A DNA stretch of 64,000 bases, from contig JABHCC010000189.1 of NCBI GenBank assembly GCA_018669475.1, positions 18,383-82,382 of the forward strand, in the 5' to 3' direction. The translations under genes and the position numbers were made by a program. Origin of the DNA: Bacteroidota bacterium. GTDB taxonomy: Bacteria > Bacteroidota > Bacteroidia > Bacteroidales > UBA12481. How positions within the stretch are numbered: position 1 is the first letter of the stretch; every line of letters starts with the position of its first letter. Below the pieces are notes generated by a model that saw nothing but the letters and a program-made list of their open reading frames with translations, had not been told where the DNA came from and ran no database searches. This document shows positions 13,106 to 62,478 of the stretch, in pieces.

Positions 13106-13118
13106 GTTCATTCCTCAT

Positions 13119-32127: not shown

Positions 32128-33138
32128 ATGAAAACAAACAACACAAGGCTTTATGCAATTCGCATTATAACTATTTCATTGTTAGTTATATATTCAACTT
32201 CTTGCATGCAAAAGCAAAAAAAAGACAGTCAGCAAGAGCAGGAGACAAGCTGGGCTGAAAAATTAAACTATCCTTCAGGGAAGAAAGTCATAATTCTTCA
32301 TGCTGATGATGCAGGAATGTCTGCAGGAGCTAATATCGCCACTATTCAATACCTTGAAAACAATCAGATACAATCAGCTGCAGTTATGGCTCCTTGCCCG
32401 AATGCTGAGGAATTTATTCAATGGGCTATTGATCATCCTGATTCAGATGTGGGTATGCACCTCACTTTAACCAGTGAATGGAAAACATATCGTTGGACTG
32501 CGATTGCGAATCCAGATGAGATTCCCGGTCTGATTGATCCTGATGGAATGTTCTGGCATGAAGTCTATGATGTAGTGAAAAGTGCAACTGCTGAAGAGGT
32601 TGAAAAAGAAATCAGGGCTCAAATTGATATGGCAATTTCAATGGGTTATCAGCCCGATCATCTTGACACCCACATGGGAACCCTCTATGGTCATCCAAGT
32701 TATCTGGAAGTGTTTATCAACGTTGCTGAAGAGTATGGCATTCCTGCAAATATTATAGATCTCTCTGATTCTCTCGTTGCTGACAGATTTAGAAAGGAGG
32801 GCTATCCAATAGATGATAATGTTATTGGATTGGTGGATAAATATAGCTTGCCAAAACTTGATAATTTCACCAGCGTTCCTAAAGGGAATACTTATGAGGA
32901 GAAAATTGAAAACTTTACAAAACTTGTCCAATCATTGCCATCTGGTCTTACCGAAATAATATTTCATCCATCAGTTCAAGGTGAACAATTAAAGAGTATT
33001 ACTAATTCCTGGCAACAAAGAGTGTGGGAAGCAGAAATGTTTTCTGATCCAGAATTGATCAGGTTTTTTGAAGACGAAGGGATTATTTTCACAAACTGGA
33101 AAGAAATAATGCAACGATACAGGGAAATGGAAGAATAA
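32128..33138 (+). CDS. YdjC/ChbG-family carbohydrate deacetylase lipoprotein
   Basis: Lipobox YSTSC. YdjC motifs ILHADDAGMS, VGMHLTLTSEW and HLDTHMG. Confidence 0.75.
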   Translation: MKTNNTRLYAIRIITISLLVIYSTSCMQKQKKDSQQEQETSWAEKLNYPSGKKVIILHADDAGMSAGANIATIQYLENNQIQSAAVMAPCPNAEEFIQWAIDHPDSDVGMHLTLTSEWKTYRWTAIANPDEIPGLIDPDGMFWHEVYDVVKSATAEEVEKEIRAQIDMAISMGYQPDHLDTHMGTLYGHPSYLEVFINVAEEYGIPANIIDLSDSLVADRFRKEGYPIDDNVIGLVDKYSLPKLDNFTSVPKGNTYEEKIENFTKLVQSLPSGLTEIIFHPSVQGEQLKSITNSWQQRVWEAEMFSDPELIRFFEDEGIIFTNWKEIMQRYREMEE

Positions 33139-35391: not shown

Positions 35392-36795
35392 TTAAAGTGA
35401 AATTATCTTTTTCATCATTCGTTTGATTATCTCATCTGTATATGGATCCATGGATGGCCCAAACCATGACATCAAGCGCGATTCATAATCATTCAAATGA
35501 TAATATTTATCTGGAATAATATACCCCACATAATTGCCATTGAAACCGGTTGTCAGCGACTTGAATCCTTCTGCATTCATAGTATTCTTAAAATCAATAG
35601 CTGTTTCTCCACTAAAGTCAGCAGGTGTTGTGGTCCATACCAGATCTCCTATCCTTGCTGTTTGAATATATGTATCACCAAATGATGGTAATAGCTTTCT
35701 GCTTATGACAGGGTTTAGTCGCAGATTATCTGTTACTCTGACATGAAGTTCCGGCAGATTAATTTTTACGCTTAGATAGGCCATTCCAATACTATCATTA
35801 AGCTCAACATACCGGCTATACTTAAGAACACTGTCAGCCAGGGCTTCACCCAAATATGCAGGTTTTTCAAATTTATCTCCCTTGCTCCCGGGACCATGGC
35901 TGCCAACACTACCTGCAAAAAATACAGCCATATCAGCACCTGTATCTTCCAGATGCCGCTGCCAGTAACCAGGGTAGTCAGCACTGAATTGCATATTCCA
36001 TCCACCCAGAGTTGTTGCATGTGCATCAAATGAGCCTATAACAATACTTTTCCCTTCCTCCTGTTTGGCAACTATAAATACAAATTCTGCATTTTTTTCA
36101 CCTCGCTCTCCAATCAGGCGGTTGGAAATTAAATCAGAAGCCTCAAAACTACCTGTGCCAATACTCCCTGGTCTAAGGTCTTCAACAGCATCTTCAATTG
36201 CCTTGGTATATTGTAATACCAGCCAATCTATAATACTCTGATTTGGCAAGCCGGCAAATTGTTTTCCTACATAGCCTTCAGACCAGCCACCAACACTCGA
36301 ATGGGTATGGCTTGCAGTAAAGAAAAGCTGATTTCGCTTGATCCCCAGTTTCTCATCTACTATCCGGCTAACTCCTTCGCTGATATTTGGTGGCACTATC
36401 AGAATGTCGGAGCCAATCATCAAAATTAATCTTTCCTTCACCCGAACAGCTACAACCTTAACAAAAAGACTATCATGAATACCTTCGGCATATGTACCCT
36501 TTCTACTTCCGAATCCAGCCATAGGAACTTCTTTAAAAGCCCCAGCTTCCGGAATATCTTCCTGAGCTCCGATAAGTGGTGTGATACTAGCCTTTCCGGT
36601 TCCAATATAAACTTTGCCTTCTGCCAGGCTTAATTCTTTTGATAAGCTGTCGAAATGTGTAATAGTTTCTTGGTAATAGTCACTTTCAAAATAGGGGGAA
36701 TAATCCACTTTTTCACAAGCCCAAATCAGAACAAGTAAAATAATTACAGATATCACTCCTATGGTCTTTCCTATAATCTTTAAAAACTTCAGCAT
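35392..36795 (-). CDS. Membrane-anchored neutral/alkaline-ceramidase-like amidohydrolase (paralogue 2)
   Basis: N-terminal TM segment (GVISVIILLVLIWAC). Motifs MAGFGSRKGTYAEGIHDSLFVKVVAV...GSDILIV and FTASHTHSSVGGW. Confidence 0.65.
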   Translation of the reverse strand: MLKFLKIIGKTIGVISVIILLVLIWACEKVDYSPYFESDYYQETITHFDSLSKELSLAEGKVYIGTGKASITPLIGAQEDIPEAGAFKEVPMAGFGSRKGTYAEGIHDSLFVKVVAVRVKERLILMIGSDILIVPPNISEGVSRIVDEKLGIKRNQLFFTASHTHSSVGGWSEGYVGKQFAGLPNQSIIDWLVLQYTKAIEDAVEDLRPGSIGTGSFEASDLISNRLIGERGEKNAEFVFIVAKQEEGKSIVIGSFDAHATTLGGWNMQFSADYPGYWQRHLEDTGADMAVFFAGSVGSHGPGSKGDKFEKPAYLGEALADSVLKYSRYVELNDSIGMAYLSVKINLPELHVRVTDNLRLNPVISRKLLPSFGDTYIQTARIGDLVWTTTPADFSGETAIDFKNTMNAEGFKSLTTGFNGNYVGYIIPDKYYHLNDYESRLMSWFGPSMDPYTDEIIKRMMKKIISL

Positions 36796-45404: not shown

Positions 45405-46904
45405 ATGTTAACAGGCATTGACTATTTTATCGTAATAGCATACATAATTGGGATCCTGATTCTTGGTTATTATTTTAAGCGATTCGTAAACACATCTGAA
45501 GATTACTTCCTGGGGGGTAGGAGCCTGCCTTTTTGGGCTATTGGGATGTCTATTGTTGTTTCGGACATTGGTGCACTTGATTTTGTGGGTGTATCAGGAC
45601 AAGCATATCGGTATGGAATTTCAGTAGGCAACTTTGACTGGATCGGATCTGTTCCTGCGATGCTTTTGGCTGCATTTATTTTCATCCCTTATTTTTGGCG
45701 AGGAGGGATGTACACCATACCTGAGTACTTAGGAAGAAGATATAATAGTTCTGTTCGTACCATAGCCTCATTAACCTGGATAATATTTTTTGCTGTGGAT
45801 TTGGGAGTGCTTTTCTGGGCCAGTGCGGTATTACTCAATGTTCTGATGGGCTGGCCAATCTGGATGTCAATAATGATAACAGCTGGTGTTGTTGGTCTCT
45901 ATACTTATTTTGGAGGAATTACGGCCGTCGTGATGACGGATGTGGTTCAAATGGTTATTATGTTTGTTGGTGGCCTGACCTTAACATTTTTAGGCCTGCA
46001 TGCTGTTGGTGGTTTTGATGTCCTGGTTGATAAAATAACTACTATGGGCCCTGAATATCGAAGTCATTTCGATCTTATTCAATCCTCTGATACGAAGACT
46101 CCCTTTCCCTGGACAGGCATATTATTTGGTCTTACCTTTGTCATGGCCAATGCCTATATGATTGGTAATCAGTCGATAGTGCAGCGATGTCTTACGGCGA
46201 AAAATGAATGGCATGCAAAAGCGAGTATGGTATTTGCTTCCGGGCTTAAAATGCTAATCCCAATTCTGGTACTTTTCCCCGGACTTATGGCGATTATCAT
46301 TCATCCCGGTTTGGAGGATGGTGACCAGTCTTTGCCAATGATGATAAAAAGCATACTGCCACCTGGTCTTATTGGATTAGTATTCGCTGCATTTTTTGCT
46401 GGCTTGATGTCAAGTGTTGATTCGATATTAAACTCTACTGCAACGCTTTTTACAAAAGATATCTATGAGCCTTTCATAAAAAAAGGAGCAAGTGATGTGC
46501 ATTATCTAAAAGTTGGTAAACTGACCACTCTGGTGTTATTGATTATTGGTGTTGCTACTTCGCCAATAAGTAGCAAGTTCCCTGGAATTTATGTTGCTGT
46601 ACAAACCTTTTTGTCATTCTTTCAGGGGCCATTATTTGCGATACTTCTTCTTGGAATTTTCTGGAAACGAACAACCCAGTGGGGCGGACTCTCAGGTATA
46701 ATAATTGGTATTGGGTTTGCGACTGTACTTAACCTTTTTAAGGGTGAATTCTTCACAATAGAAGATCCTTTCCTCTATGTGTCATGGTGGTCGTTTTTAG
46801 TAGGTTTTATTGTTACTGTTACTGTAAGCCTGATTACTCCCCGACATTCAGATTTAAAACTGGAAGGATTAGTTTACAAAAGATTTGGAAAAAAAGACAA
46901 ATGA
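45405..46904 (+). CDS. Sodium:solute symporter (SSS/SGLT-like)
   Basis: About 13-14 TM segments. Block YFLGGRSLPFWAIGMSIVVSDIGALDFVG. Confidence 0.85.
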   Translation: MLTGIDYFIVIAYIIGILILGYYFKRFVNTSEDYFLGGRSLPFWAIGMSIVVSDIGALDFVGVSGQAYRYGISVGNFDWIGSVPAMLLAAFIFIPYFWRGGMYTIPEYLGRRYNSSVRTIASLTWIIFFAVDLGVLFWASAVLLNVLMGWPIWMSIMITAGVVGLYTYFGGITAVVMTDVVQMVIMFVGGLTLTFLGLHAVGGFDVLVDKITTMGPEYRSHFDLIQSSDTKTPFPWTGILFGLTFVMANAYMIGNQSIVQRCLTAKNEWHAKASMVFASGLKMLIPILVLFPGLMAIIIHPGLEDGDQSLPMMIKSILPPGLIGLVFAAFFAGLMSSVDSILNSTATLFTKDIYEPFIKKGASDVHYLKVGKLTTLVLLIIGVATSPISSKFPGIYVAVQTFLSFFQGPLFAILLLGIFWKRTTQWGGLSGIIIGIGFATVLNLFKGEFFTIEDPFLYVSWWSFLVGFIVTVTVSLITPRHSDLKLEGLVYKRFGKKDK

Positions 46905-47419: not shown

Positions 47420-50047
47420 ATGATTGCAAATTATAAAAGAGAACTTTCCAATAATTGGCAGATTCAATCCTCTGAAAAGATAACACCAGGGGGGGGGGAG
47501 ATATCCTGTGCTGAATATTCTGCAATTAGCTGGTTCCCAACAAACGTACCTTCAACTGTTCTGGCCACCTTAGTTAAGAACAAGCAATATCAAGATCCAT
47601 ATTTCGGTACAAATATGAAAGGAATACCTCAGGAACAATTTAAGGTTCCATGGTGGTATCGAACTGAATTTGAGCTTTCAAAAACTGAGGCAAACAATAC
47701 CATTCTATTAAGCTTTGATGGTATTAACTACCGGGCTAGCATCTGGATTAATGGTAAACAACTTGCTACTTCTAAAATATATAACGGAGCCTTCCGCAGA
47801 ATTAAGCTTGACATCAGTAATAACATTGTTTCTGGCAATAATATCCTGGCCATCGAGGTAATTCCTCCTGAGCCAGGGGATTTTTCTATTGGCTTTGTAG
47901 ATTGGAATGTTGATCCGCCAGACAGGAATATGGGAATATTCAGGGGTGTGAGTTTGCATATAAATGGTGGTATTTCTATTGAGAATCCATTTGTTGATAC
48001 AAAAATCAATCGTGATAATTCAAATGATGCTGTCCTATGCCTTTCAACAGAATTAGTTAATCACACCGGTGAAGCGATATCAGGCGTTCTTACAGGAGTA
48101 TTTGATAATATTCAGTTGAAGAAATCTCTTACTCTTTCTCCTGCTGAAAGGGCTACTGTTGTATTCAGGCCTGACGAGTTTCCTGAATTGAATATAAAAG
48201 ATGCTAAGTTTTGGTGGCCTTATCAGATAGGAGAACCTGACTTACATAATCTGAAGCTTTCTCTCGATATTGATAATTATACTTCAGATATCCAACAACT
48301 TAAATTTGGGATTCGTGAGGTGGAAGATTATGTTAATGAAGCCGGACACCGGGGATTCAAAATCAATGGAAAGAAAGTTCTTATAAAAGGAGCTGGATGG
48401 ACCGATGACCTGTTCCTTCAGGATACTCACGAGTCTCTTGAAGACCAGATTAGCTATGTGAAGCAGATGAATCTGAATTGCATTCGTTTGGAGGGATTCT
48501 GGGGAAAAGACCAGAAGCTGTATGACCTTTGCGATCAGGCTGGGATTTTAATGATAGTCGGATGGAGTTGTCATTGGGAGCATGAAGAGTACCTGGGAAA
48601 GCCGGTTGATCCTCTTTATGGAGGGGTTACCGAAGTTGATGAAATAGAGCTCATCTCCCGCTCATGGGAGGAACAAATACTCTGGCTTCGAAACCATCCA
48701 GCCATATTTGTCTGGAATGTGGGTAGTGACATGGTCCCTCACCCTGATCTGGAAAGAAAATACATTGAAACATTTAATAAGTATGATAATACACGTCCGT
48801 ATCTGAATTCTACGGGTGGAGTTGGAAGTGAACAGGGGATCATTACCGAGGTGGAGGTAGTGAGTGAAATCAGTGGTTCTTCACGGGTAAAAATGTTAGG
48901 ACCATACGCTTATACACCACCCGTATATTGGTATACTGATAAAAAATTGGGTGGGGCCTACGGTTTTAATACTGAAACATGTCCAGGGGCGAACATCCCT
49001 CCGCTTGACAGCATACAAAAAATGATTCCATCAGATCATCTCTGGCCCATTGATGAAACATGGGAATATCATTGTGGTAAAAATGACTTCAGTAAGCTCG
49101 ACCGGGTCAAAAAGGCGATAGCATACCGTTATGGACCGGCTAAGAATATAAAGGATTTTGCATATAAGGCACAATTGCTGAATTATGAGCTCATGCGTCC
49201 TATGTTTGAAGCTTTTCAGGTAAATAAACATATTGCTACCGGTGTTATTCAGTGGATGCTAAATTCTGCCCTGCCCAATATGTACTGGCAATTGTATGAT
49301 AGCTACCTGATGCCCAACGGCGCTTTCTACAGCACAAGAAAAGCATGCGAACCTCTTCACCTGGCATATAACTATGGTGATCATTCAATCAACATTATCA
49401 ATGATCATTTACACCCTGTAGCGGATCATCGGGCATACATCCGGATCTTTGACATTTCTTCCCATGAAGTATTCAGTGAAAGTGTTGTCGTGAATGTTCT
49501 GGAGGAGTCATCATCGGTCTTGATGAAGCTTCCTGAGAATATGGAACTTACCGATACGTGGTTTCTGGATCTGCGTTTGTTTAACCATTCTGAAAAACAA
49601 CTCGGAAATAATTTCTACTGGCTGTCACTGAAAAGAGATGAGCTGGATTACGAGGCGAAATTTGACAACTGGCCGTTCTATACACCAAGTAAATCTTATG
49701 CTGACTACACATCCTTGCACAGTTTGAAAAAAGCAAGCATCAGAGTCAAGCATCAGTTAAAAATGTGTGGAGACAGGCAGACTCTGACTGTTTGGATAGA
49801 AAACCCCACCGATCAGATTGCGTTTTTCATCTATCTGAGGATTTCGGGAAAAGAAGGCAGAAAAGCAGTTTTACCAGTTTGGTGGAATGACAATTACATA
49901 ACACTTCTTCCTCATGAGATCAGGGTTTTAACTGCATCTTTCAAATCAAGCGCCAGAGAAAATGACTTGGGATGGCTTGAGGTGAGTGGCTGGAATATTG
50001 AGCACCGTGAACAAATGATAAATACCTATGGCACAATTAGCGATTAA
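47420..50047 (+). CDS. GH2 glycoside hydrolase, exo-beta-D-glucosaminidase (CsxA)/beta-mannosidase-like, no signal peptide
   Basis: N-terminal block VPSTVLATLVKNKQYQDPYFGTNMKGIPQEQFKVPWWYRTEF closely follows the CsxA-type GH2 pattern as I recall it. LSFDGINYRASIWINGKQL is the GH2 sugar-binding domain. The N-terminus MIANYKRELSNNW has no leader. Confidence 0.8.
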   Translation: MIANYKRELSNNWQIQSSEKITPGGGEISCAEYSAISWFPTNVPSTVLATLVKNKQYQDPYFGTNMKGIPQEQFKVPWWYRTEFELSKTEANNTILLSFDGINYRASIWINGKQLATSKIYNGAFRRIKLDISNNIVSGNNILAIEVIPPEPGDFSIGFVDWNVDPPDRNMGIFRGVSLHINGGISIENPFVDTKINRDNSNDAVLCLSTELVNHTGEAISGVLTGVFDNIQLKKSLTLSPAERATVVFRPDEFPELNIKDAKFWWPYQIGEPDLHNLKLSLDIDNYTSDIQQLKFGIREVEDYVNEAGHRGFKINGKKVLIKGAGWTDDLFLQDTHESLEDQISYVKQMNLNCIRLEGFWGKDQKLYDLCDQAGILMIVGWSCHWEHEEYLGKPVDPLYGGVTEVDEIELISRSWEEQILWLRNHPAIFVWNVGSDMVPHPDLERKYIETFNKYDNTRPYLNSTGGVGSEQGIITEVEVVSEISGSSRVKMLGPYAYTPPVYWYTDKKLGGAYGFNTETCPGANIPPLDSIQKMIPSDHLWPIDETWEYHCGKNDFSKLDRVKKAIAYRYGPAKNIKDFAYKAQLLNYELMRPMFEAFQVNKHIATGVIQWMLNSALPNMYWQLYDSYLMPNGAFYSTRKACEPLHLAYNYGDHSINIINDHLHPVADHRAYIRIFDISSHEVFSESVVVNVLEESSSVLMKLPENMELTDTWFLDLRLFNHSEKQLGNNFYWLSLKRDELDYEAKFDNWPFYTPSKSYADYTSLHSLKKASIRVKHQLKMCGDRQTLTVWIENPTDQIAFFIYLRISGKEGRKAVLPVWWNDNYITLLPHEIRVLTASFKSSARENDLGWLEVSGWNIEHREQMINTYGTISD
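47489..47498 (+). repeat. G10 homopolymeric tract inside codons 24-27 of the GH2 gene
   Basis: Read directly: cca ggg ggg ggg gag. The other G or C runs I noticed in the window are 6 nt long. Confidence 0.9.
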
Positions 50048-51311
50048 CGGAGGATCTTCCGTGAGAGATACAAAAGTAAATCCCTGGCCGTCGTGGCCTG
50101 TGTGGGATGAGCATGAAGAAAAAGCCCTCATTGATGTGCTGAATAGTGGGATTTGGTCTTATAACGGACCAAAAGAGCAGGAATTCAATTTAGCCTTTGC
50201 AGAATACATTGGTGCCAAATATGCGATATCCGCTGCCAATGGCACGGTTACTATTCAGCTGGCTTTGGAGGCCCTGGGTATTGGTCTTGGTGATGAAGTG
50301 ATTGTGCCGGGTTTAACATGGCAAGGCACAGCTGCAGCAGCCCTTGATGTAAATGCTATACCTGTTCTGGTTGATGTTTGCGAGGATACCTGGTGCATTG
50401 ATCCTGAGGAGGTTGAAAAGTCTATAACACCCAGAACCAAAGCAATTATTCCAGTTCACTTATATGGAAGCTTTGCCGATATGGATGCAATCATGGATAT
50501 TGCAAAAAGACATAATCTATTTGTGATAGAAGATTGTGCCCATAAAACCGGAGGTGAATGGAGTGGGAGAAAAGCCGGTAGTATAGGAGATATCGGGAGT
50601 TTCAGCTTTCAATTGTCAAAACACCTGACAGCGGGCGAAGGGGGCGCAATGACTACCAATGATCCACTTTTGGCTGAGAAGCTTGATGCTTTGAGAAACT
50701 GCGGCAGAAGACCTGAAACCGAAGAATATTCACAGGAGATTAAAGGAGCTGGATTTTATAGCGACGAAGGAAACTTTATCCAGTCAGGTAATTATCGGAT
50801 AACAGAATTTCAGGCAGCTATCCTGGTTGAAGCTTTAAAAAGATTGCCCGAACAAAACAGTATCAGAGACAAAAATGGATTATATATGAACTCACTCCTT
50901 TTTGACTTACCCGGAGTGAGCCCCATGCGTCGCGATAAAAGAGAAACCAAAGAGGCCTATTTCAATTTTGCTTTCAGATATCATCAGGATGAATTCAATA
51001 GTCTGCCTGTCGATAAATTCAGGAAGGCATTTGAAAGTGAATTGGGAATCGGGGTCGACAGCTCTTATGAACCATTGAACATCTGCTCGCTATACGCACC
51101 TTTAACAAAACCTGCACGATATAAAATCAATGATCCGGAATGGGCTAAAATTGACCCATCGGGATTTAAGTTGCCGGTATGTGAAAGAATTTTTAAAGAG
51201 GAGTCAGTTTGCCTTCCTCACAAAATTCTTCTTGGAAATCAACCGGATATGGACCTGATAGCAAAGGCGATAGAAAAGATTAGAATTAATTCGATGGAAG
51301 TGATTAAATGA
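50028..51311 (+). CDS. DegT/DnrJ/EryC1/StrS-family PLP aminotransferase (glutamine:scyllo-inosose aminotransferase-like)
   Basis: The N-terminus NGGSSVRDTKVNPWPSWPVWDEHEEKAL is typical of this subfamily. PLP-lysine context FSFQLSKHLTAGEGG. Overlaps the GH2 stop by 20 nt. Confidence 0.85.
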   Translation: MAQLAINGGSSVRDTKVNPWPSWPVWDEHEEKALIDVLNSGIWSYNGPKEQEFNLAFAEYIGAKYAISAANGTVTIQLALEALGIGLGDEVIVPGLTWQGTAAAALDVNAIPVLVDVCEDTWCIDPEEVEKSITPRTKAIIPVHLYGSFADMDAIMDIAKRHNLFVIEDCAHKTGGEWSGRKAGSIGDIGSFSFQLSKHLTAGEGGAMTTNDPLLAEKLDALRNCGRRPETEEYSQEIKGAGFYSDEGNFIQSGNYRITEFQAAILVEALKRLPEQNSIRDKNGLYMNSLLFDLPGVSPMRRDKRETKEAYFNFAFRYHQDEFNSLPVDKFRKAFESELGIGVDSSYEPLNICSLYAPLTKPARYKINDPEWAKIDPSGFKLPVCERIFKEESVCLPHKILLGNQPDMDLIAKAIEKIRINSMEVIK

Positions 51312-51318
51312 TATTCCA

Positions 51319-52323
51319 ATGAACAGATTTAGAATTGCCATTATCGGTACCGGATATATTGCTCATTATCACGCGCGTGCCCTGCAATTATTGCCTGATG
51401 TGGAGATTGCAATAGTCGTTGACAATCAGCTTGATAAGGCTAATAAATTTGCTGAAATATACAAAACCAAAGAGATCGCAACAGATGCCATGGCGCTTGT
51501 TGACAGACCTGATATCAACGCAGTTCTGATACTCACCCCCAACAAATTCCATGCTCCCTATACAATTGAGTTCTTAAGCCGGGGCAAAGATGTGTTTCTG
51601 GAAAAACCCATGGCAATGAATGCCAGTGAAGGAGATCAAATCATTGAAGTTTCAAATAGGAATGGTCAACTCGTTATGGTGGGCCATATGTGGCGGTTTG
51701 ATGCCGAAGTAGATTACATCAAAAAAGTTGTTGATTCTGGTCGCCTGGGAAAGATCGTCAAGACAAAAGGATATGGAATACATGAAAACTGGGGACCTTC
51801 TGGTTGGTTCACTCAGAAAGAGCTGGCTGGTGGAGGAGCATTAGCCGATATGGGAGTTCATGCCATTGATACTGTAAGATATATTCTTGGTGATCCCAAA
51901 CCACTTTCAGTTTATGCAGCCATTGATACCCAATATGGTAACTATGACGTGGATGATAACGGCATTGTGATAATCTCTTGGGATAATGGTGTCCACTCAA
52001 TTATAGAGAGTGGTTGGTGGCACCCCCATATGGATGGTGTTGAAGCCGCTACCCGACTGTTTGGAACCAAAGGGTATGGCAGTGTATTTCCTACTTGTTA
52101 CAAAGCCGATGAGGGGAAAACTAAGGAGGAGTATAAGCCTCAGGGACCATTAAAATCTGAGCATTGCGATCAAAGTATTTATAATCGCCAGATGGAGTAT
52201 TTTATCGAGTGTATTAGAACACGAAAACAACCTTCCCCCGGACTCAAGGAAGGGCAAACTGTATTAAATATTGTTGATGCTGCCTACCTTTCAGCTAAAA
52301 AGAACGAACTTATAAGATTATAG
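51319..52323 (+). CDS. Gfo/Idh/MocA-family NAD(P)-dependent oxidoreductase
   Basis: Rossmann motif IAIIGTGYIAHYH and EKP motif (VFLEKPMA). About 334 aa. Confidence 0.85.
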   Translation: MNRFRIAIIGTGYIAHYHARALQLLPDVEIAIVVDNQLDKANKFAEIYKTKEIATDAMALVDRPDINAVLILTPNKFHAPYTIEFLSRGKDVFLEKPMAMNASEGDQIIEVSNRNGQLVMVGHMWRFDAEVDYIKKVVDSGRLGKIVKTKGYGIHENWGPSGWFTQKELAGGGALADMGVHAIDTVRYILGDPKPLSVYAAIDTQYGNYDVDDNGIVIISWDNGVHSIIESGWWHPHMDGVEAATRLFGTKGYGSVFPTCYKADEGKTKEEYKPQGPLKSEHCDQSIYNRQMEYFIECIRTRKQPSPGLKEGQTVLNIVDAAYLSAKKNELIRL

Positions 52324-53732: not shown

Positions 53733-54896
53733 ATGGAAAAGCTTAATCTGAAGAAAATATTGCCAGTATTGATGGCCTCTTTGATAATGGGTTTCGCTGA
53801 TATCGTGGGTGTGGCCACAGGGTACATCAAGAATGATTTCGGACTAACTGACGATCTCGCACAGCTAATACCTTTTATGGCTCTTATATGGTTCTTCTTT
53901 CTTGCTGTACCAACCGGAATTTTACAAGATAGATATGGTAAAAAGACCATGTTGAACATAGGCACAGCATTATTAGGATTAGGGATGCTCGTTCCTTTTA
54001 TCCATTATTCATTTGCTGTGATGCTTCCGGCAATGATTCTGATGGGTATTGGAAATACAATCGTTCAGGTATCGGCCAATCCTTTGTTAATGAATGTTGT
54101 ACCAAAAGACAAGTTCTCGAGTTTCATGAGCCTGTCGCAGTTTTTGAAGGCAATAAGTTCACTTTTAGGCCCAATAATTACAACATTCGTTGCGATACAA
54201 TTTGGAAACTGGAAACTAGTGTTTGTTGTTTATGCTGCTACATCTTTGATTGCAGTTACATGGCTGTTCTTTACAAAAATTGATGAGTCAAAGGGTAATG
54301 AAAAACCAGCAACATTTAAATCTTGTTTCTCTTTATTGAAAAATAAGTTTGTAATACTCATGGCCCTGGGGATATTTTTCCTTGTTGGGGCAGATGTTGG
54401 GATGAATACAAATATTGCAAATTATCTTCAATCCACCTTTAGTTTGTCTCTCGAACAAGCCTCACTAGGAATTAGTATTTATTTTGCGGCCTTAATGATT
54501 GGTCGTTTTATGGGAGTCATTATCCTGAACTGGTTACCTGCAAAAAAGTTCCTTGTTGGAACAACTGTCATAGCCCTGATCAGTATGCTGGTCATGATAT
54601 TTGCTCCAAACGTATTGATTGCAAGGATTGCTATTTTTATGGTAGGACTTGGATCTGGTAATCTTTTCCCATTAATTTTTGCTATTACACTCGAAAAAAT
54701 GCCGAAGCGAGCAAATGAGATTTCTGGTCTGATGATTATGGCAATTTCCGGAGGTGCTATCATTCCGCCTATCATGGGTCTTGTTAGCACTAACTTTGGA
54801 ATAACTGCCAGCTTAATGGTTTTAGCTGCTTGTTTATTATATATTCTGGTGGCAAGTCTGTATACACTAAGGAAAAGGGAAGATAATGGACTATAA
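53733..54896 (+). CDS. MFS sugar transporter (FucP/GluP-like)
   Basis: 12-TM profile, about 387 aa. The N-terminal block GFADIVGVATGYIKNDFGLTDDLAQLIPF is typical of the FucP/GluP subfamily. Confidence 0.75.
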   Translation: MEKLNLKKILPVLMASLIMGFADIVGVATGYIKNDFGLTDDLAQLIPFMALIWFFFLAVPTGILQDRYGKKTMLNIGTALLGLGMLVPFIHYSFAVMLPAMILMGIGNTIVQVSANPLLMNVVPKDKFSSFMSLSQFLKAISSLLGPIITTFVAIQFGNWKLVFVVYAATSLIAVTWLFFTKIDESKGNEKPATFKSCFSLLKNKFVILMALGIFFLVGADVGMNTNIANYLQSTFSLSLEQASLGISIYFAALMIGRFMGVIILNWLPAKKFLVGTTVIALISMLVMIFAPNVLIARIAIFMVGLGSGNLFPLIFAITLEKMPKRANEISGLMIMAISGGAIIPPIMGLVSTNFGITASLMVLAACLLYILVASLYTLRKREDNGL

Positions 54897-55917
54897 AGGG
54901 ATATACAAAATCTTTGATGCAGAGAAGATTAATACTTATCCAGTATCTGAGCGCACTAATAAATCCAAGCTTAGTGATCTGCTTAGGCTCGAAGATATTG
55001 ATGAAATGTCTTTTGATGTCTCAGAAGAAGCTGAAGTTAATCTTACTCTTCTTGCTCGTGAGATTATTGCTGCCAGAGAGAAGAATAGCCCGGTTATATT
55101 CTTTACAGGAGGCCATCTTGTGAAAAACGGACTAAGTGGGCTACTTGGAGATCTTGTCAAACGTGGTCTTTTCACTATGATCTCTGGAAATGCAGCTACT
55201 TCAATACATGACTTTGAACTGGCGTTAATTGGAGAAACAAGCGAATATGTTCCGCAGGCACTTGAAAAAGGGCAATTTGGGATGGCTTATGAATTCAACT
55301 ACATAAATGCTGCCCTTACTCTGGGCGATAAAAATTGTCTAGGCTACGGTGAAGCAGTTGGAAAAATGATTTGCGACGAGCTCTTCAGAGATGAGGTAGT
55401 TAAAACTCTGAATCCGGAACATGCATCCTTTGAATTCATGCATCCTGAAATTAGCTTACAGGCTATTTGTTATGAAAAAAAAGTTCCAATGACAATTCAT
55501 GTCGGTATTGGTACAGATGTTATTGATCAGCATACATTTTTCGACGGCAGGGCAAAAGGTGGGTGCTCAGGCCGTGACTTCCTGATTTATACTCAGGAGA
55601 TATCTGAACTTACTAAAGGAGGTGTGGTATTAAACGTGGGTAGTGCAGTTACCGGGCCTGAGGTGTTTCTTAAGGCTGCTTCAATGGCCGGAAATATTGG
55701 AAATATTCCGAATGGAATTATTACTGCCAATTTTGATCTAAGATCTTATAATCCTGATGATTTCATTAATGAAAATACTGTAGGCTATTACTATCGCGAC
55801 CAGAAGAGTATTGTAACCCGGGTTCCGCAGGCATATGGAGGACAAGGTTATTACATTGGCGGAAATCAAAAGCAGACTATTCCTCTGTTATATAAGAAAT
55901 TACTACAGCTTCTGTAG
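54886..55917 (+). CDS. Cytoplasmic protein of unknown function (weak deoxyhypusine-synthase-like / DHS-like Rossmann pattern)
   Basis: Clean 343-aa ORF overlapping the MFS stop by 11 nt. IFFTGGHLVKNGLSGLLGDLVKRGLFTMISGNAATSIHDFELAL loosely resembles the DHS block. This assignment is tentative. Confidence 0.3.
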   Translation: MDYKGIYKIFDAEKINTYPVSERTNKSKLSDLLRLEDIDEMSFDVSEEAEVNLTLLAREIIAAREKNSPVIFFTGGHLVKNGLSGLLGDLVKRGLFTMISGNAATSIHDFELALIGETSEYVPQALEKGQFGMAYEFNYINAALTLGDKNCLGYGEAVGKMICDELFRDEVVKTLNPEHASFEFMHPEISLQAICYEKKVPMTIHVGIGTDVIDQHTFFDGRAKGGCSGRDFLIYTQEISELTKGGVVLNVGSAVTGPEVFLKAASMAGNIGNIPNGIITANFDLRSYNPDDFINENTVGYYYRDQKSIVTRVPQAYGGQGYYIGGNQKQTIPLLYKKLLQLL

Positions 55918-55942
55918 CCGGATTATAATTAATTATTTACCA

Positions 55943-57847
55943 ATGGAAAGAGATCGAATTAATGAAATTCTCACAAAAATCAGCAGTGTAAGAATTGCCG
56001 TGTATGGAGATTTTTGTCTGGATGCCTATTGGCTTATGGATCCTGATGGATCTGAAGTTTCAGTTGAGACCGGTTTGAAGGCAGAAGCTGTAGCAAGCCA
56101 TGTGTACTCTCCGGGAGGAGCTGGCAATATTGTAGCGAACCTGGCTGCGCTAAAACCGGCTGCCATCAAAGTGATTGGTGTTGCAGGCAACGATATTTAT
56201 GGACGTGAACTATCATCACAGCTCCGCGATCTGGGTGCTGACACTGACGCATTAATCATCCAGAATGAAAAATTTGATACCTATACATACACTAAAAAGT
56301 ACTATGGCGACAAGGAAGATCCCCGGATTGATTTCGGATTGAAAAATAATCGCTCTGAGGATACTGATACTGCCATCCTGCTTAATCTGAAAGATGCACT
56401 CGAAAATTATGATGCTCTGATTTTCAATCAACAGGTTACAGGCAGCATTTCTAAGCTGTCGTTCATTGATGAGGCAAACAAACTCTTCGAGCAGTACAGT
56501 GATAAAATCGTTGTCCTTGATTCACGTCATTTCAATGCAAACTTTCGGAATGTATTCCGGAAAACTAATGAGATTGAAATAGCAGTACTAGGTGGAAAAG
56601 ATGTTAATCCCCAGGATTTTGTTTCAATATCAGAGGTGAGACAATATGGGAGTCAGGAATATGAGCAATACAAAAAACCTGTCTTTGTCACATGTGGAGA
56701 TCGGGGTATTATCAGTATTGACTCATCCGGGATCACAGAGACTCCCGGTATACAATTATTAAAAAAGCTTGATACAGTTGGGGCAGGAGATACCACAATC
56801 AGTGCGCTTTCACTCTGTCTGGCGGCACAAGTCAGCCCTGCCGAATCAGCACAATTTGCCAATCTTGCTGCCGGGGTTACGGTACAGAAATTGTTTACCA
56901 CCGGAACAGCTAATGGCGAAGAGATCATGGCACTTAATGATGATGCTGATTACAACCATCGGCCTGAACTTGCCGTGGATATCCGACTGGCAAAATATCT
57001 GCCGGATTCTGAAATTGAATTGTGCAATAGTGATATCGCATCAAAAGCCGGAAGTATAGAACATGCCCTTTTTGACCATGATGGAACAATAAGCACCTTA
57101 AGGCAAGGGTGGGAAGCTATTATGGAGCCCGTTATGATCAAGGCCATATTGGGAGACAAATATGAAACTGCTGACAGCAATCTCTTCCAGAAGGTAATAG
57201 AACAGGTTGTTGAGTTCATCGATATGTCAACAGGAATACAGACCATTCTGCAAATGGAAGGCCTTGTCAAAATGGTCGATGATTTCAATATTGTTCCGAA
57301 AGAGGAAATCCTGGACAAGTTTGCTTATAAAAAGATCTTTAATGATGCCCTGATGGTGGTTGTTTCCGAAAGACTGGAGAAACTTGTAAGCGGACAATTA
57401 AGTATATCCGACTATACTCTCAAAGGTGCGATCAGGTTTCTGGAAGCGCTGAAAGATAGGGAAATAAAGCTCTATCTTGCCAGTGGGACTGATAAGGATG
57501 ATGTTATTAATGAAGCCCGGATGCTTGGATATGCCGATCTCTTTGATGGTGGCATCTATGGTTCTGAAAATGATATTAAAAAGTATTCGAAAAAGATGAT
57601 TATTAACAAGATCATCAATGAAAACAATCTCAAAGGCAATGAGCTTGTCGTTTTTGGTGATGGTCCTGTTGAGATCAAAGAATGTATTAGGGCAAACGGA
57701 ATAGCCATTGGAGTATCCAGCGATGAAGTCACAAGATATGATCTGAACCTTAAAAAACGAACAAGATTGATCAAGGCAGGGGCACAAATCATTATACCCG
57801 ACTTTTCACAATCAAATCAGCTGATTGAACTATTGTTAAACAATTGA
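55943..57847 (+). CDS. Fusion: PfkB-family sugar(-phosphate) kinase (HldE/RfaE domain-I-like) plus HAD-superfamily phosphatase/mutase domain
   Basis: Kinase motifs: IAVYGDFCLDAYW, GGAGNIVANLAAL and DTVGAGDTTISAL...ANLAAGVTVQK. HAD motifs: LFDHDGTIS (motif I), LASGTDKDD and FGDGPVE. The ATG at 55943 is preferred over 55835, which would overlap the upstream gene. Confidence 0.75.
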   Translation: MERDRINEILTKISSVRIAVYGDFCLDAYWLMDPDGSEVSVETGLKAEAVASHVYSPGGAGNIVANLAALKPAAIKVIGVAGNDIYGRELSSQLRDLGADTDALIIQNEKFDTYTYTKKYYGDKEDPRIDFGLKNNRSEDTDTAILLNLKDALENYDALIFNQQVTGSISKLSFIDEANKLFEQYSDKIVVLDSRHFNANFRNVFRKTNEIEIAVLGGKDVNPQDFVSISEVRQYGSQEYEQYKKPVFVTCGDRGIISIDSSGITETPGIQLLKKLDTVGAGDTTISALSLCLAAQVSPAESAQFANLAAGVTVQKLFTTGTANGEEIMALNDDADYNHRPELAVDIRLAKYLPDSEIELCNSDIASKAGSIEHALFDHDGTISTLRQGWEAIMEPVMIKAILGDKYETADSNLFQKVIEQVVEFIDMSTGIQTILQMEGLVKMVDDFNIVPKEEILDKFAYKKIFNDALMVVVSERLEKLVSGQLSISDYTLKGAIRFLEALKDREIKLYLASGTDKDDVINEARMLGYADLFDGGIYGSENDIKKYSKKMIINKIINENNLKGNELVVFGDGPVEIKECIRANGIAIGVSSDEVTRYDLNLKKRTRLIKAGAQIIIPDFSQSNQLIELLLNN

Positions 57848-57852
57848 GATTC

Positions 57853-58773
57853 ATGAATACAAAGTATCATTCACGAGATTATTATTTAGGACTTGATATT
57901 GGCGGAACAAAGTGCGGCCTTGTATTAGGTGATAAAGATTTTAATCTGCTGGAGAAGATTGTTTTTCCAACAAGGACAGAAAGAGGATACCGCGAGATTA
58001 TTGATGAGTTTATCAGCCGGGCTCACTACTTGCTCGAAAAACACGGTAAAAACCATTTGCTTAAAATAGGCATCAGTTGCGGAGGTCCCCTGGATTCAAA
58101 AAAAGGGATCATATATTCTCCACCCAATTTGCCCGGATGGGATTCTGTACCAATTGTCGATATTTTCAAAAAGGAATTTGATGTTGATGTTGAGGTTCAG
58201 AATGATGCCAATGCCTGCGCATTAGCAGAATGGATGATGGGTGCAGGTGTTGGTACACAAAATATGATTTTTCTGACCTTCGGAACCGGTATGGGTGCAG
58301 GCCTGATACTAAACGGACAACTTTATGCCGGAACAAATGATTTAGCCGGAGAAGTCGGACATATGAGGATGGCTGAAGATGGTCCTGTGGGCTTTGGAAA
58401 GGCAGGCTCTTTTGAAGGTTTCTGTAGCGGAGGCGGAATTGCTCAACTGGCCAAAAGTCGAATGTCTGAAAATATTACAGCCAGGGAGGTATTTGAGGCT
58501 GCAAATTCCGGTGATCCGCTTGCAGAAGAGATCGTACGTATCTCTGCTGAATATCTGGGAAAAGGGCTGGCGGTTTTGATAGATATCCTGAATCCCGAAT
58601 GCATTGTTATCGGAAGTATTTATGCCAGAAATGAGGCTATTTTAAAGCCGTATATTGAAGAAGTTTTGAGTCATGAAGCAATTCCGGCCGCGAATAAGGT
58701 TTGTAAGATACTGCCTGCAGCTTTAGGAGAATCGATAGGTGATTATGCTGCGCTTTGTGTTGCAATGAATTGA
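57853..58773 (+). CDS. ROK-family sugar kinase (the canonical Cys-rich zinc motif is not evident)
   Basis: Motifs LGLDIGGTKCG, CGGPLD and NDANACALAE. The region after GEVGHM reads RMAEDGPVGFGKAGSFEGFCSGGG rather than CxCGxxGCxE. Confidence 0.8.
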   Translation: MNTKYHSRDYYLGLDIGGTKCGLVLGDKDFNLLEKIVFPTRTERGYREIIDEFISRAHYLLEKHGKNHLLKIGISCGGPLDSKKGIIYSPPNLPGWDSVPIVDIFKKEFDVDVEVQNDANACALAEWMMGAGVGTQNMIFLTFGTGMGAGLILNGQLYAGTNDLAGEVGHMRMAEDGPVGFGKAGSFEGFCSGGGIAQLAKSRMSENITAREVFEAANSGDPLAEEIVRISAEYLGKGLAVLIDILNPECIVIGSIYARNEAILKPYIEEVLSHEAIPAANKVCKILPAALGESIGDYAALCVAMN

Positions 58774-58795
58774 AATTCAGGGAAAAACAAGAAGA

Positions 58796-59434
58796 ATGAA
58801 AGAAGAAGTTTATATAAATGACTTGGTTAAACGCTATCCCGCACTTGAATCATGTAAAGGGGATATCAATCAGGCTATCCAGGCAATCATCAAATGCTAT
58901 TCAGATAATGGTAAGCTTTTGATTTGTGGTAATGGAGGTAGCTGTGCTGATGCTGATCATATAGTAGGAGAGCTGATGAAGAGTTTTGAAAAGCAGCGAC
59001 CAGTTGATGATGAGCTAAGAAATAGCCTGTTATCTGTTTCTGATGAGAGGGGTAGCAGTATCGCCGGCAGACTGCAAAAGGCCCTTCCTGCAATCTCGCT
59101 AAATGCACATACTGCTCTGTACTCTGCCATTGCGAATGATATAGATGCTGAGATCGTTTTTGCTCAGCAGGTAGCCGGTTATGGAGAAAAGGGTGATGTA
59201 TTGATAGCTATCAGCACATCAGGAAATTCTCAGAATGTCATCGATGCCGCAATTACTGCCAAAGCGCTTGGATTAACAGTTATCGCACTTACCGGACAAA
59301 ATGGAGGGAAAATGAAACAATACAGTGATATCGCCGTTTGTGTTCCAGCTGATAATACTGCAGATGTACAGGAGTTTCATCTTCCGGTTTATCACACAAT
59401 TTGTAAGATGGTAGAAAGTTGGTTCTATGAGTAA
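58796..59434 (+). CDS. SIS-domain sugar-phosphate isomerase, GmhA (sedoheptulose-7-phosphate isomerase)-like
   Basis: GKLLICGNGGSCADADHIVGEL, GDVLIAISTSGNSQNVIDA, LTGQNGGKM and VQEFHLPVYH parallel the E. coli GmhA blocks as I recall them. Confidence 0.8.
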   Translation: MKEEVYINDLVKRYPALESCKGDINQAIQAIIKCYSDNGKLLICGNGGSCADADHIVGELMKSFEKQRPVDDELRNSLLSVSDERGSSIAGRLQKALPAISLNAHTALYSAIANDIDAEIVFAQQVAGYGEKGDVLIAISTSGNSQNVIDAAITAKALGLTVIALTGQNGGKMKQYSDIAVCVPADNTADVQEFHLPVYHTICKMVESWFYE

Positions 59435-60921: not shown

Positions 60922-62478
60922 ATGAAAAAGTGGTTAATTAGAATAGGTGCTGTAATTATCGGAATTGCTATTCTTATGTGTTTATGGGTAATGTGGAATT
61001 TAAAGGATCGCCATTCCGGATACGAGATTGATTTGACTCTTAAAACCTCGGATCTGCCGGGCAGTTTAAAAGTTGGTTTTGCTGCTCTACCTATAACCCC
61101 CGATATTATTGATACTTGGAACGATGTTAACGATGATGCAGAATACAGTGAAAAAGATGGGGATACCTATAACGACAATAATACTAATGGCAAGTTCGAT
61201 GCATACTGGATAGCAGGCTTCAGCCAGGCCCGGGCAGCCAACGGCGTTCATGATGATGTATGGGCTCGTGTGGTCGTCTTTGATGATGGCGCAAGCAGGT
61301 TTGCTTTGGTTTCACTTGATGCAATTGGATTTCGTCATGATGATGTTGTTGATATCAGAAAAATGATTCCGGATGATGCGGGAATAGATTATGCTATAAT
61401 CTCAAGTACACATACACATGAAAGTAATGATTTGATCGGGATTTGGGGGAAAGGTTGGTTCTCCAGCGGCGTAAACAAGGAGCACATGCAGTATGTGAAG
61501 AAACAGGCTGTCACTGCTATCACTCAGGCTGTGAGTAATTTAAGGCCAGCAAGATTGAGTTTTGCCCAGGATCTTACAGGAGCTGAGGATCTTCTTATGG
61601 ACACCCGGAAGCCTATTGTAACAGATTCGGGACTCCGACTTATACAGGCTATTGATTCCGAAACCAATACTACTCTTGGCGTTTTGCTTGCCTGGGCAAA
61701 TCATCCCGAAACGCTCTGGTCTGACAATCTGTTTATCAGCTCAGATTTCCCGCATTATGTTAGGGAATATATTGAAAATGGAGTGTACGACGGAGATTCA
61801 TTAGTGAGGCCCGGACTCGGCGGTACAGCAGTTTATATTAACGGGGCAATTGGTGGTTTAATGACTACCAGAGGCAGCATGCCGATAAACGATCCGTTTT
61901 CAGATACTGTTTATATTGAACCAACTTTTGATAAAGCAAAAGCTCAGGGACAAAAACTCGCATTATTGGCACTTAATGCCCTGGCTAAACCTGATACTAT
62001 TATTGAGAAAGCAAATATTTCACTTAGAGCTAAAACCTTATTATTGCCATTAGATAATAATATGTTTCGTCTAGCCGCTTCCCTGGGAATCCTGGATTTT
62101 GGGATGAAGGGATGGTTTAAAATACGATCAGAAATTGCTGCATTCTCTTTAGGTCCGGCAAGTTTTCTGTGTATTCCAGGTGAAATCTATCCTGAAATCA
62201 TTAACGGTGGAATTGAAACGCCTGAAGGACAGGATTACAATACAGATATTGTTGAGACACCACCTCTGCGAAACCTAATGCCAGGTGAGTTTAAATTCAT
62301 TATTGGTTTAGCTAATGATGAGATTGGCTATATAATTCCCAAAAGCGAGTGGGATAATGAACAACCGTTTATCTATGATGATGCTGATGATTCTCCATAC
62401 GGGGAAGAAAACTCTATCGGTCCGGAAACAGCCCCAATACTTTACAAAGAGCTAAAGGGGATATTAGGAGAATTGTAG
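60922..62478 (+). CDS. Membrane-anchored neutral/alkaline-ceramidase-like amidohydrolase (paralogue 3)
   Basis: N-terminal TM segment (IGAVIIGIAILMCLWVMW). Motifs GVHDDVWARVVVFDDG...SLDAIGF and SSTHTHESNDL. Asp/Asn-rich insert NDVNDDAEYSEKDGDTYNDNNTNGKFD. Confidence 0.65.
   Translation: MKKWLIRIGAVIIGIAILMCLWVMWNLKDRHSGYEIDLTLKTSDLPGSLKVGFAALPITPDIIDTWNDVNDDAEYSEKDGDTYNDNNTNGKFDAYWIAGFSQARAANGVHDDVWARVVVFDDGASRFALVSLDAIGFRHDDVVDIRKMIPDDAGIDYAIISSTHTHESNDLIGIWGKGWFSSGVNKEHMQYVKKQAVTAITQAVSNLRPARLSFAQDLTGAEDLLMDTRKPIVTDSGLRLIQAIDSETNTTLGVLLAWANHPETLWSDNLFISSDFPHYVREYIENGVYDGDSLVRPGLGGTAVYINGAIGGLMTTRGSMPINDPFSDTVYIEPTFDKAKAQGQKLALLALNALAKPDTIIEKANISLRAKTLLLPLDNNMFRLAASLGILDFGMKGWFKIRSEIAAFSLGPASFLCIPGEIYPEIINGGIETPEGQDYNTDIVETPPLRNLMPGEFKFIIGLANDEIGYIIPKSEWDNEQPFIYDDADDSPYGEENSIGPETAPILYKELKGILGEL

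Follow-up and report, generated by a model that had tools for sequence, protein, structure and literature searches.

The 64,000-nucleotide stretch of DNA analysed here (hereafter the window; contig JABHCC010000189.1 of GenBank assembly GCA_018669475.1, from a Bacteroidota bacterium of the Bacteroidales) carries a pair of adjacent genes for a DegT-family aminotransferase and a Gfo/Idh/MocA oxidoreductase (referred to below as DegT and Gfo), which stand directly behind a gene for a glycoside hydrolase of family 2 (GH2). It is proposed, with a probability of roughly 45%, that the pair serves the catabolic removal of the amino group of a sugar by transamination, after which the keto sugar is reduced with NADH. 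The proposal is built on the fold identities, the catalytic residues, the linkage of the genes and the logic of the compartments, all of which are observed. An earlier sequence-only reading had suggested that the chemistry runs in reverse here, that is, from amino sugar through keto sugar to alcohol, and this direction is the one best supported by the gene context.

First of all, DegT is a clear member of its family (PF01041, 330 bits against a cut-off of 19.8, E 2.7e-98). Its closest solved structures are the L-glutamine:2-deoxy-scyllo-inosose aminotransferases BtrR/RbmB (5w71, 2c7t and 5w70, E 1e-91 to 4e-88), with about 40% identity across 402 residues and an alignment that is full-length, including the C-terminal region. 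AHBA synthase (8e-56), WbpE (3e-41) and NtdA (5e-33, over the core domain only) follow as weaker matches, and perosamine synthase and ArnB also lie behind. The WPxWP N-terminus noticed earlier is found as WPSWP at residues 20–24, aligned with WPEWP of BtrR, and the pattern W/Y-P-x-W-P is kept in all but three of 102 DegT relatives. The assignment to the scyllo-inosose aminotransferase type made from it holds as well, the nearest enzymes being those of the BtrR type, which use free substrates rather than substrates bound to a nucleoside diphosphate (NDP). Lys198 is aligned with BtrR Lys192, the lysine that forms the Schiff base with pyridoxal phosphate (PLP), and is kept in 101 of the 102 relatives; the dehydratases of the DegT family have His at this position. 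Since the protein is closest to the BtrR type and keeps the Schiff-base lysine, it is predicted to be a true transaminase of the free-substrate branch, and neither a dehydratase nor an NDP-sugar enzyme.

The key to the likely substrate of the pair is the hydrolase. It was noticed earlier that DegT overlaps a glycoside hydrolase gene and that Gfo follows 7 nt later; both are confirmed, with an overlap of 20 nt between GH2 and the start of DegT and a gap of 7 nt (51312-51318) in front of Gfo. What had been missed is the identity of the hydrolase, which is predicted to be an exo-beta-D-glucosaminidase of the CsxA type: it matches the CsxA structure 2vzs over its full length (E 6e-148) and contains the Ig_GlcNase domain (PF18368, E 1.5e-27). 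In CsxA, Glu394 binds the C2-NH2 of glucosamine by charge, and catalysis depends on an unusual Ser-Asp469 acid/base together with the nucleophile Glu541 (PMC6566704). All of these residues are kept in the window GH2, as E358, S436-D437 and E519. Among the GH2 sequences of related loci the amine-binding Glu is invariant (84/84), and the acid/base Asp and the nucleophile Glu are kept in 77 of the 84.

Separately, it was observed that the other seven CsxA-like sequences have Asp-Glu in place of Ser-Asp at the acid/base position, reminiscent of the Asp-Glu motif in GlmA, an archaeal glucosaminidase of family GH35. Judging by position, these variants are probably second GH2 copies downstream of Gfo (loci L027, L030, L040, L043, L050 and L077).

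Gfo is recognised by PF01408 (97 bits, E 1.8e-27) and PF22725 (89 bits, E 3.3e-25), and it stays under the cut-off of every named NCBIfam family: IolG comes best (TIGR04380, 170 of 355 bits), the archaeal UDP-N-acetylglucosamine (UDP-GlcNAc) 3-dehydrogenase second (NF040723, 140 of 450 bits), and levoglucosan dehydrogenase reaches 115 of 650 bits. The best match in the Protein Data Bank (PDB) is the glycoside 3-oxidoreductase DgpA (1e-32); further relatives are an aldose-aldose oxidoreductase, inositol dehydrogenases and 1,5-anhydrofructose reductase (AFR, 1e-19), and NtdC is not among the PDB matches listed. By sequence, the catalytic pattern consists of the EKP motif (E95-K96-P97) and Asp177/His181, and Asp35 at the end of beta-2 is typical for NAD(H) enzymes. 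The regiochemistry of Gfo, that is, which carbon it acts on, cannot be read from the sequence.

To see how far the pair travels together, relatives were collected in a species scan with one genome per species; the best 80 DegT relatives were taken, and 79 usable loci were mapped with the protein families of the window. The distance counts below (those over 63, 61 and 51 loci) include only loci with enough flanking sequence. At least 585 species, belonging to Bacteroidota, Ignavibacteriota, Chlorobiota and Planctomycetota, have a close DegT relative. The best 80 are 67–79% identical to the window protein, with one spirochaete at 57%, and are spread over Bacteroidales, Prolixibacteraceae, Flavobacteriaceae (Arenibacter, Zobellia, Aurantibacter), Ignavibacteriales, Chlorobiota metagenome-assembled genomes, Phycisphaerae, Sedimentisphaerales and Pirellulales. 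Carriers that can be cultivated include Arenibacter, Zobellia amurskyensis, Draconibacterium and Mariniphaga sediminis. GH2 lies at most 4 kb upstream of DegT in 59 of 63 loci, and an orthologous Gfo at most 5 kb downstream in 44 of 61, directly adjacent in 30. An importer, either of the SSS or MFS type or a family-less protein with 12 transmembrane segments, is found within 7 kb in 47 of 51 loci: the SSS orthologue stands ahead of GH2 in 32 of the 79 loci, and in 32 of the 79 an MFS transporter lies between GH2 and DegT. ROK kinases (24/79, usually directly after GH2 or Gfo), GH92 (23) and SusC (22) are frequent companions. When the search was reversed and metagenome contigs were searched with Gfo, the same cassettes were obtained for relatives of at least 58% identity, and every one of these having upstream sequence has DegT directly upstream. 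The pairing of DegT and Gfo is not due to chance. In its compact form in Ignavibacteria, the operon reads LacI, then SIS, PfkB-HAD, GH2, DegT, Gfo and ROK, and the regulators of related loci are of catabolic types in general (LacI, Crp, AraC).

The setting is therefore catabolic, as had been supposed: the orthologues occur with GH2, importers, SusC/D, GH92 and ROK, and not in the O-antigen or capsule loci by which the earlier reading would have been refuted. No recurrent cluster of the glycosyltransferase, polymerase or flippase type, as would mark an O-antigen or capsule locus, was seen across the 79 loci, in which glycosyltransferases were not searched for directly. Nor does DegT sit in an aminocyclitol biosynthetic cluster, since 2-deoxy-scyllo-inosose synthase, inositol genes and glycosyltransferases are absent from the annotated genes of the window and from the recurrent clusters of the 79 loci. 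A search for NagB by phmmer, with an E. coli query sequence, gave no homologue in the window or the 79 loci; as negative evidence this is weak, since the gene may be placed elsewhere in the genome.

It is against this setting that a biosynthetic role has to be weighed, in which Gfo would oxidise an imported or released sugar and DegT would aminate it with glutamine, so that, as in the formation of kanosamine or the aminoglycosides, a 3-amino sugar or an aminocyclitol would result, for use as metabolite, signal or precursor of the cell envelope. All characterised close relatives run in this direction, and the operon does hold a HAD domain and kinases. However, besides the missing glycosyltransferases and 2-deoxy-scyllo-inosose synthase, there is neither a nucleotidyltransferase nor an exporter in the same gene sets, what constantly accompanies the pair is a hydrolase with importers, controlled by regulators of catabolic type, and the HAD fusion is found in only seven of the 79 loci; such a role is judged very improbable. 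The sequence-only reading had compared the genes with the kanosamine set NtdC/NtdA/NtdB and its HAD phosphatase, pointing to a HAD domain 4 kb downstream. This domain exists (residues 409–622, about 4.7 kb past the Gfo stop), but it is the C-terminal half of a fusion with a PfkB kinase, and with its rarity and the distance of NtdA from DegT the analogy is not supported.

The compartments of the enzymes restrict the possibilities further. Two types of locus can be distinguished. In the first (the window, Arenibacter, Ignavibacteria and Planctomycetota), GH2 lacks a signal peptide and follows an SSS symporter; in the second (Prolixibacteraceae and relatives), a signal peptide of the lipoprotein type is present on GH2 and the genes are arranged as GH2, ROK, MFS, DegT, Gfo. 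Signal peptides never occur on DegT or Gfo. Since GH2 is periplasmic in some lineages and DegT and Gfo are cytoplasmic, the pair must act after the hydrolase, on a small imported monosaccharide rather than on the intact glycan.

This bears directly on oxidation-assisted glycoside cleavage, which had been offered earlier as an alternative and in which Gfo would oxidise the intact glycoside, the bond would be broken by elimination and DegT would act on the keto intermediate. DgpA as the best PDB match of Gfo and the presence of GH4 enzymes, which work by transient oxidation, in more distant loci (described below) agree with it. But GH2 has its hydrolytic catalytic set complete, hydrolase and Gfo are separated by the membrane in many loci, a homologue of the xylose-isomerase-like TIM-barrel lyase is lacking in the window and in the 79 loci except L081, and in the families of the 3-keto-glycoside pathway BT_2157-2160 Gfo scores only 34.6 bits against the 750 of BT_2158_fam and 33.4 against the 650 of BT_2159_fam. 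The idea is not supported and is regarded as scarcely probable at all.

Gfo relatives of 43–51% identity lead to a second class of operons, which have no GH2 and come from metagenomes (L111-L164; e.g., L126 1356-9675 and L159 323-14970). The minimal form is composed of LacI, a substrate-binding protein, two permeases, Gfo, an NAGK-type kinase (BadF/NAGK family) and DegT. Extended forms add a GH38 alpha-mannosidase, the N-deacetylases PIG-L (BshB-like) and YdjC, a Leloir-like trio of GalK, nucleotidyltransferase and epimerase, or a GH4 glycosidase together with a ceramidase-like protein. The DegT of these operons is 40% identical to that of the window and nearer to it than to BtrR (304 vs 237 bits); their ABC binding protein gives weak matches to the mannobiose-binding MBP1 (1e-17) and to UspC of M. 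tuberculosis (2e-12). YdjC homologues are present in 12 of 54 distant Gfo loci and in 5 of the 79 close ones. Gfo, DegT, a sugar kinase and an importer form the constant set of both classes, and the usual company in both, even without GH2, consists of enzymes by which a free amine on a sugar is exposed or recognised.

Put together, the proposed pathway would run as follows. N-deacetylases or amidases may first bare the amine on the glycan, and GH2 would then free a beta-linked 2-amino sugar, most simply D-glucosamine, in the cytoplasm in the case of the window and in the periplasm in other lineages. DegT would move an amino group from the free sugar onto a 2-oxo acid, giving a keto sugar and an amino acid; the NAD(H)-dependent Gfo would reduce the keto sugar to an ordinary hydroxyl sugar, and a kinase would feed this into central metabolism. 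Each step has a precedent in that NtdC/NtdA, GnnA/GnnB and StrI/StsC are pairs of the same two families working in the opposite direction.

The most parsimonious version places the reaction at C-2, because the C-2 amine is what deacetylases expose and what GH2 recognises. Free glucosamine (galactosamine in the distant operons) would be transaminated at C-2 to a 2-keto-hexose and reduced by Gfo to mannose or glucose, with the nitrogen kept as glutamate, which would be a hexosamine route independent of NagA/NagB. This specific form is possible but doubtful. The reduction itself is not without example, since AFR, a member of the Gfo family, reduces pyranos-2-uloses, including 2-keto-glucose to mannose.

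Several points weigh against catabolic transamination and reduction. That the amine is removed and not added, from which substrate and at which carbon, is deduced from the context alone. BtrR and RbmB, the nearest relatives of DegT to have been characterised, are biosynthetic and use glutamine as donor, by which amination is favoured, and none of the enzymes of the DegT family is known to act at C-2 of an aldose. Glucosamine is already served by a kinase and NagB, which leaves two extra enzymes without explanation. Gfo is missing beside DegT in about a quarter of the loci, including the Planctomycetota and Rikenellaceae types, and the ROK kinase accompanies DegT in only the 24 loci counted above. 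Finally, recurring GDPD and ceramidase-like proteins, and a module of PfkB-HAD, SIS and GSU2086-family genes, have no place in the scheme.

Some of these difficulties would be eased if the amine removed were that at C-3. Here GH2 would free a 2,3-diamino-2,3-dideoxy-hexose, DegT would take the 3-amino group and Gfo would reduce the 3-keto sugar to glucosamine, which a kinase and NagB would then process; it would be GnnA/GnnB or WlbA/WlbC reversed, on the free sugar. Such sugars could derive from the GlcN3N of lipid A, or from the de-N-acetylated 2,3-diacetamido sugars of O-antigens and archaeal N-glycans. The extra enzymes on top of NagB would be accounted for, and the three ceramidase-like amidase homologues of the window, with its esterases and phosphatases, could strip an acylated and phosphorylated backbone. 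Two N-deacetylase families in the distant loci fit as well, and the amine-binding Glu of GH2 is compatible with the 2-amino group of such a sugar. Moreover, action at C-3 is common among the better matches of Gfo (UDP-GlcNAc 3-dehydrogenase, levoglucosan dehydrogenase, DgpA and sugar 3-ketoreductase), and all known Gfo and DegT pairs on hexoses act at C-3. On the other hand, all these family scores are far under their cut-offs with IolG on top, and DegT is nearest to BtrR and not to the GnnB/WbpE type. Ceramidase-like genes occur with DegT in a minority of loci only, which is a weaker linkage, enzymes of the CsxA type are not known to accept a 3-amino sugar, and no NagB turned up nearby in the search described. 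Removal at C-3 is regarded as unlikely, somewhat less probable than the C-2 form.

A periplasmic GDPD-family phosphodiesterase was observed between or after DegT and Gfo in 19 of the 79 loci (e.g., L035 11285-15863), and this site in Arenibacter also contains a purple-acid-phosphatase-like protein and a small HAD protein. From these neighbours, the parent substrate may carry a phosphodiester.

The GDPD proteins, with alpha-mannosidases and ceramidase-like proteins, would also suit a phospho-inositol glycolipid, and hence a role of the pair in converting myo-inositol, scyllo-inosose and scyllo-inosamine into one another, in the manner of StrI/StsC or IolG/MosB, on an inositol or aminocyclitol aglycone released from a head group of the glucosaminyl-inositol type. 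The best DegT matches are indeed cyclitol aminotransferases, and IolG is the best NCBIfam match of Gfo. Its score, however, is less than half of the cut-off, no other inositol catabolic genes were identified among the annotated window genes or the sampled loci, the formation of an amine is not a catabolic step, and in the distant stand-alone operons the kinase that goes with Gfo and DegT is of the hexosamine type. In addition, the known links of glucosamine to inositol (glycosylphosphatidylinositol (GPI), mycothiol and glycosyl inositol phosphorylceramide (GIPC)) are alpha, while GH2 enzymes of the CsxA type are beta-retaining. On balance, action on a cyclitol is distinctly improbable, and the deamination of a hexosamine followed by reduction is retained as the preferred reading.

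The genes of the cassette are summarised in Table 1. The run that contains them begins with two GH92 alpha-mannosidase homologues, followed by the SSS symporter, a small membrane protein, GH2, DegT and Gfo. After Gfo come a PhoPQ-related alpha/beta-hydrolase lipoprotein, the MFS transporter, the GSU2086-family protein and the PfkB-HAD fusion, and the run closes with the ROK kinase, the GmhA-like SIS protein, a PHP-type membrane metallohydrolase and a ceramidase-like protein.

Table 1. Coordinates of the aminotransferase/oxidoreductase cassette and associated genes in the window
Feature	Position	Strand	Evidence and remarks
YdjC-family carbohydrate N-deacetylase	32128..33138	+	PF04794, E 4e-57
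Gene run	40727-62478	+	Unbroken; gaps and overlaps of a few bases; window about 40% G+C
SSS-family sodium:solute symporter	45405..46904	+	PF00474, E 5.7e-78; candidate importer of the cassette
Open reading frame of 92 aa	47106-47384		About 3 predicted membrane spans; in the 515-nt gap between SSS symporter and GH2
GH2, predicted exo-beta-D-glucosaminidase, CsxA type	47420..50047	+	No signal peptide in the window
DegT/BtrR-like PLP aminotransferase (predicted), cytoplasmic	50028..51311	+	PF01041; 427 aa
Gfo/Idh/MocA NAD-type oxidoreductase, partner of DegT	51319..52323	+	PF01408 and PF22725; 334 aa
MFS sugar transporter, GluP/FucP/NagP-like	53733..54896	+	PF07690, E 6.5e-47; TIGR01272 gluP, 97 bits
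GSU2086-family protein	54886-55917		NF052581, 309 bits
PfkB kinase-HAD fusion	55835-57847	+	PfkB E 1.4e-27; HAD E 2.5e-10
ROK-family sugar kinase	57844..58773	+	PF00480, E 3.2e-59
GmhA-like SIS isomerase	58796-59434	+	GmhA 1tk9, 3e-36

The small membrane protein ahead of GH2 may be a transporter subunit. Among NCBIfam models, the ROK kinase comes nearest to the ROK glucokinase family, with 182 bits where the cut-off is 260. YdjC, which lies outside the run, reaches 119 bits as a carbohydrate deacetylase and 80 bits as a chitin disaccharide deacetylase, both under the cut-off; it could expose the free amine ahead of GH2 and is a putative member of the cassette. A scan for promoters and terminators between 40 and 53 kb gave counts equal to the expectation from shuffled sequence, and the sigma-70 consensus used is ill suited to Bacteroidota.

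As for the PfkB-HAD fusion, its open reading frame overlaps the preceding gene by 83 nt when read from 55835, because of which translation more probably begins at Met37 (55943). Among PDB entries, the PfkB half is matched best by the heptose-7-phosphate kinase 4e84 (1e-6). The fusion, the ROK kinase and the SIS isomerase (55835..59434) may form an accessory module for sugar phosphates. Together with the SIS isomerase, the fusion would resemble, as a look-alike within a catabolic operon, the heptose chemistry of GmhA/HldA/GmhB. The PfkB-HAD, SIS and GSU2086 genes accompany DegT in only five to seven of the 79 loci. The GSU2086-family protein resembles deoxyhypusine synthase (8put, 8e-4) and the model of a nickel-pincer-dependent ornithine cyclodeaminase only faintly. 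A link of this gene to the nickel-pincer cofactor was considered and set aside as a general feature, LarE, LarB and LarC being found beside PfkB-HAD in one locus only (L004, on the same contig as L067).

It was also asked which natural polymer the accessory genes might point to (GH92/GH38, GDPD, ceramidase-like, BNR, YdjC/PIG-L, GH3 and GH4). None fits fully; fungal wall, lipopolysaccharide or lipid A, the N-glycan core and teichoic acids fit in part, and glucosaminyl-inositol of the GPI type is ruled out by its alpha linkage. The window itself contains an unusually dense set of proteins resembling the N-terminal domain of neutral ceramidase, at 13074-15557 (fused to a BNR_2 domain), 35392-36795 and 60922-62478. 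Within 8229-39241 there are also three BNR_2 sialidase-like proteins, a DHDPS/NanA-like lyase, a GH20-like protein, GH31, YdjC, three esterases, a metallophosphatase and SusC/D. Together, these genes may point to a glycolipid or a lipopolysaccharide-like target.

Three further observations were made in and around the related loci. A membrane protein of about 12 helices at 11816-13105, with no Pfam or NCBIfam match, belongs to a family that stands directly after DegT in L052, L060, L063 and L064, where neither MFS nor SSS is present, and it is a candidate for a new sugar transporter. A lipoprotein of 746 residues without family assignment (18586-20826) has homologues in 10 of the 79 DegT loci, including those of Planctomycetota. 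The spirochaete locus (L081 64-5751) combines an M20 peptidase and a PfkB kinase with a xylose-isomerase-like TIM-barrel protein that stands between two DegT paralogues, and it may represent a related pathway for a diamino compound.

In soils, sediments and the sea, the amino sugars of chitin, chitosan, peptidoglycan, lipopolysaccharide and glycoproteins make up a major pool of organic carbon and nitrogen, and their textbook catabolism proceeds via N-acetylglucosamine-6-phosphate deacetylase and glucosamine-6-phosphate deaminase. The enzyme families concerned and the individual reactions are already known. A catabolic transaminase/reductase module for free sugars that is tied to an exo-glucosaminidase in several phyla appears to be undescribed in the literature searched, a full-text search having found no paper that describes the cassette. 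If the proposal is correct, a new amino-sugar route would exist in at least 585 species, with the nitrogen ending in an amino acid and not in ammonia, and the present label of thousands of genes, that of an aminoglycoside-type 2-deoxy-scyllo-inosose aminotransferase, would have to be corrected. Enzymes interconverting amino, keto and hydroxy sugars on unactivated substrates would also be useful for making rare sugars. If the C-2 version in particular is correct, this would be the first activity on C-2 of an aldose in the DegT family, spread over hundreds of sediment, marine and soil species.

Compared with known systems, the cassette shares with BtrR/RbmB (2c7t, 5w71 and 5w70) the full-length alignment of the aminotransferase, the WPxWP motif, the catalytic Lys and the free, non-nucleotide substrates; those enzymes, however, carry out amination in aminoglycoside clusters with 2-deoxy-scyllo-inosose synthase and glycosyltransferases, in whose place a glucosaminidase, importers and a kinase are found here. 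The kanosamine pathway of Bacillus subtilis (NtdC/NtdA/NtdB) uses the same two families on an un-nucleotidylated hexose (phosphate), and the chemistry proposed here would be its mirror image, with a kinase for the phosphatase. It differs in the distant relationship of NtdA, in the catabolic context, and in that the HAD domain here belongs to the PfkB fusion of the few loci mentioned, in a gene 3.5 kb away. GnnA/GnnB and WlbA/WlbC are likewise Gfo and DegT pairs, making 2,3-diamino sugars, and the archaeal UDP-GlcNAc 3-dehydrogenase model is the second-best NCBIfam match of Gfo; but those pairs are biosynthetic and work on UDP-sugars, whereas Gfo here stays far below the NF040723 cut-off (140 vs 450) and DegT is nearer to BtrR than to WbpE. 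AFR (PDB 2glx and 4koa, about 1e-19) is of the same family as Gfo and has the same Lys/Asp/His catalytic pattern, but the relationship is weak, and AFR depends on NADPH, while the Asp at the end of beta-2 in the window Gfo is typical for NAD(H). Finally, the logic of deacetylases, glucosaminidase and kinase is that of the chitin route of Thermococcus, in which deacetylation comes first (Dac, GlmA, kinase and GlmD). In the known glucosamine routes the amine is lost as ammonia from glucosamine-6-phosphate through NagB or GlmD, and it is in this place that the present cassette has a transaminase and a reductase.

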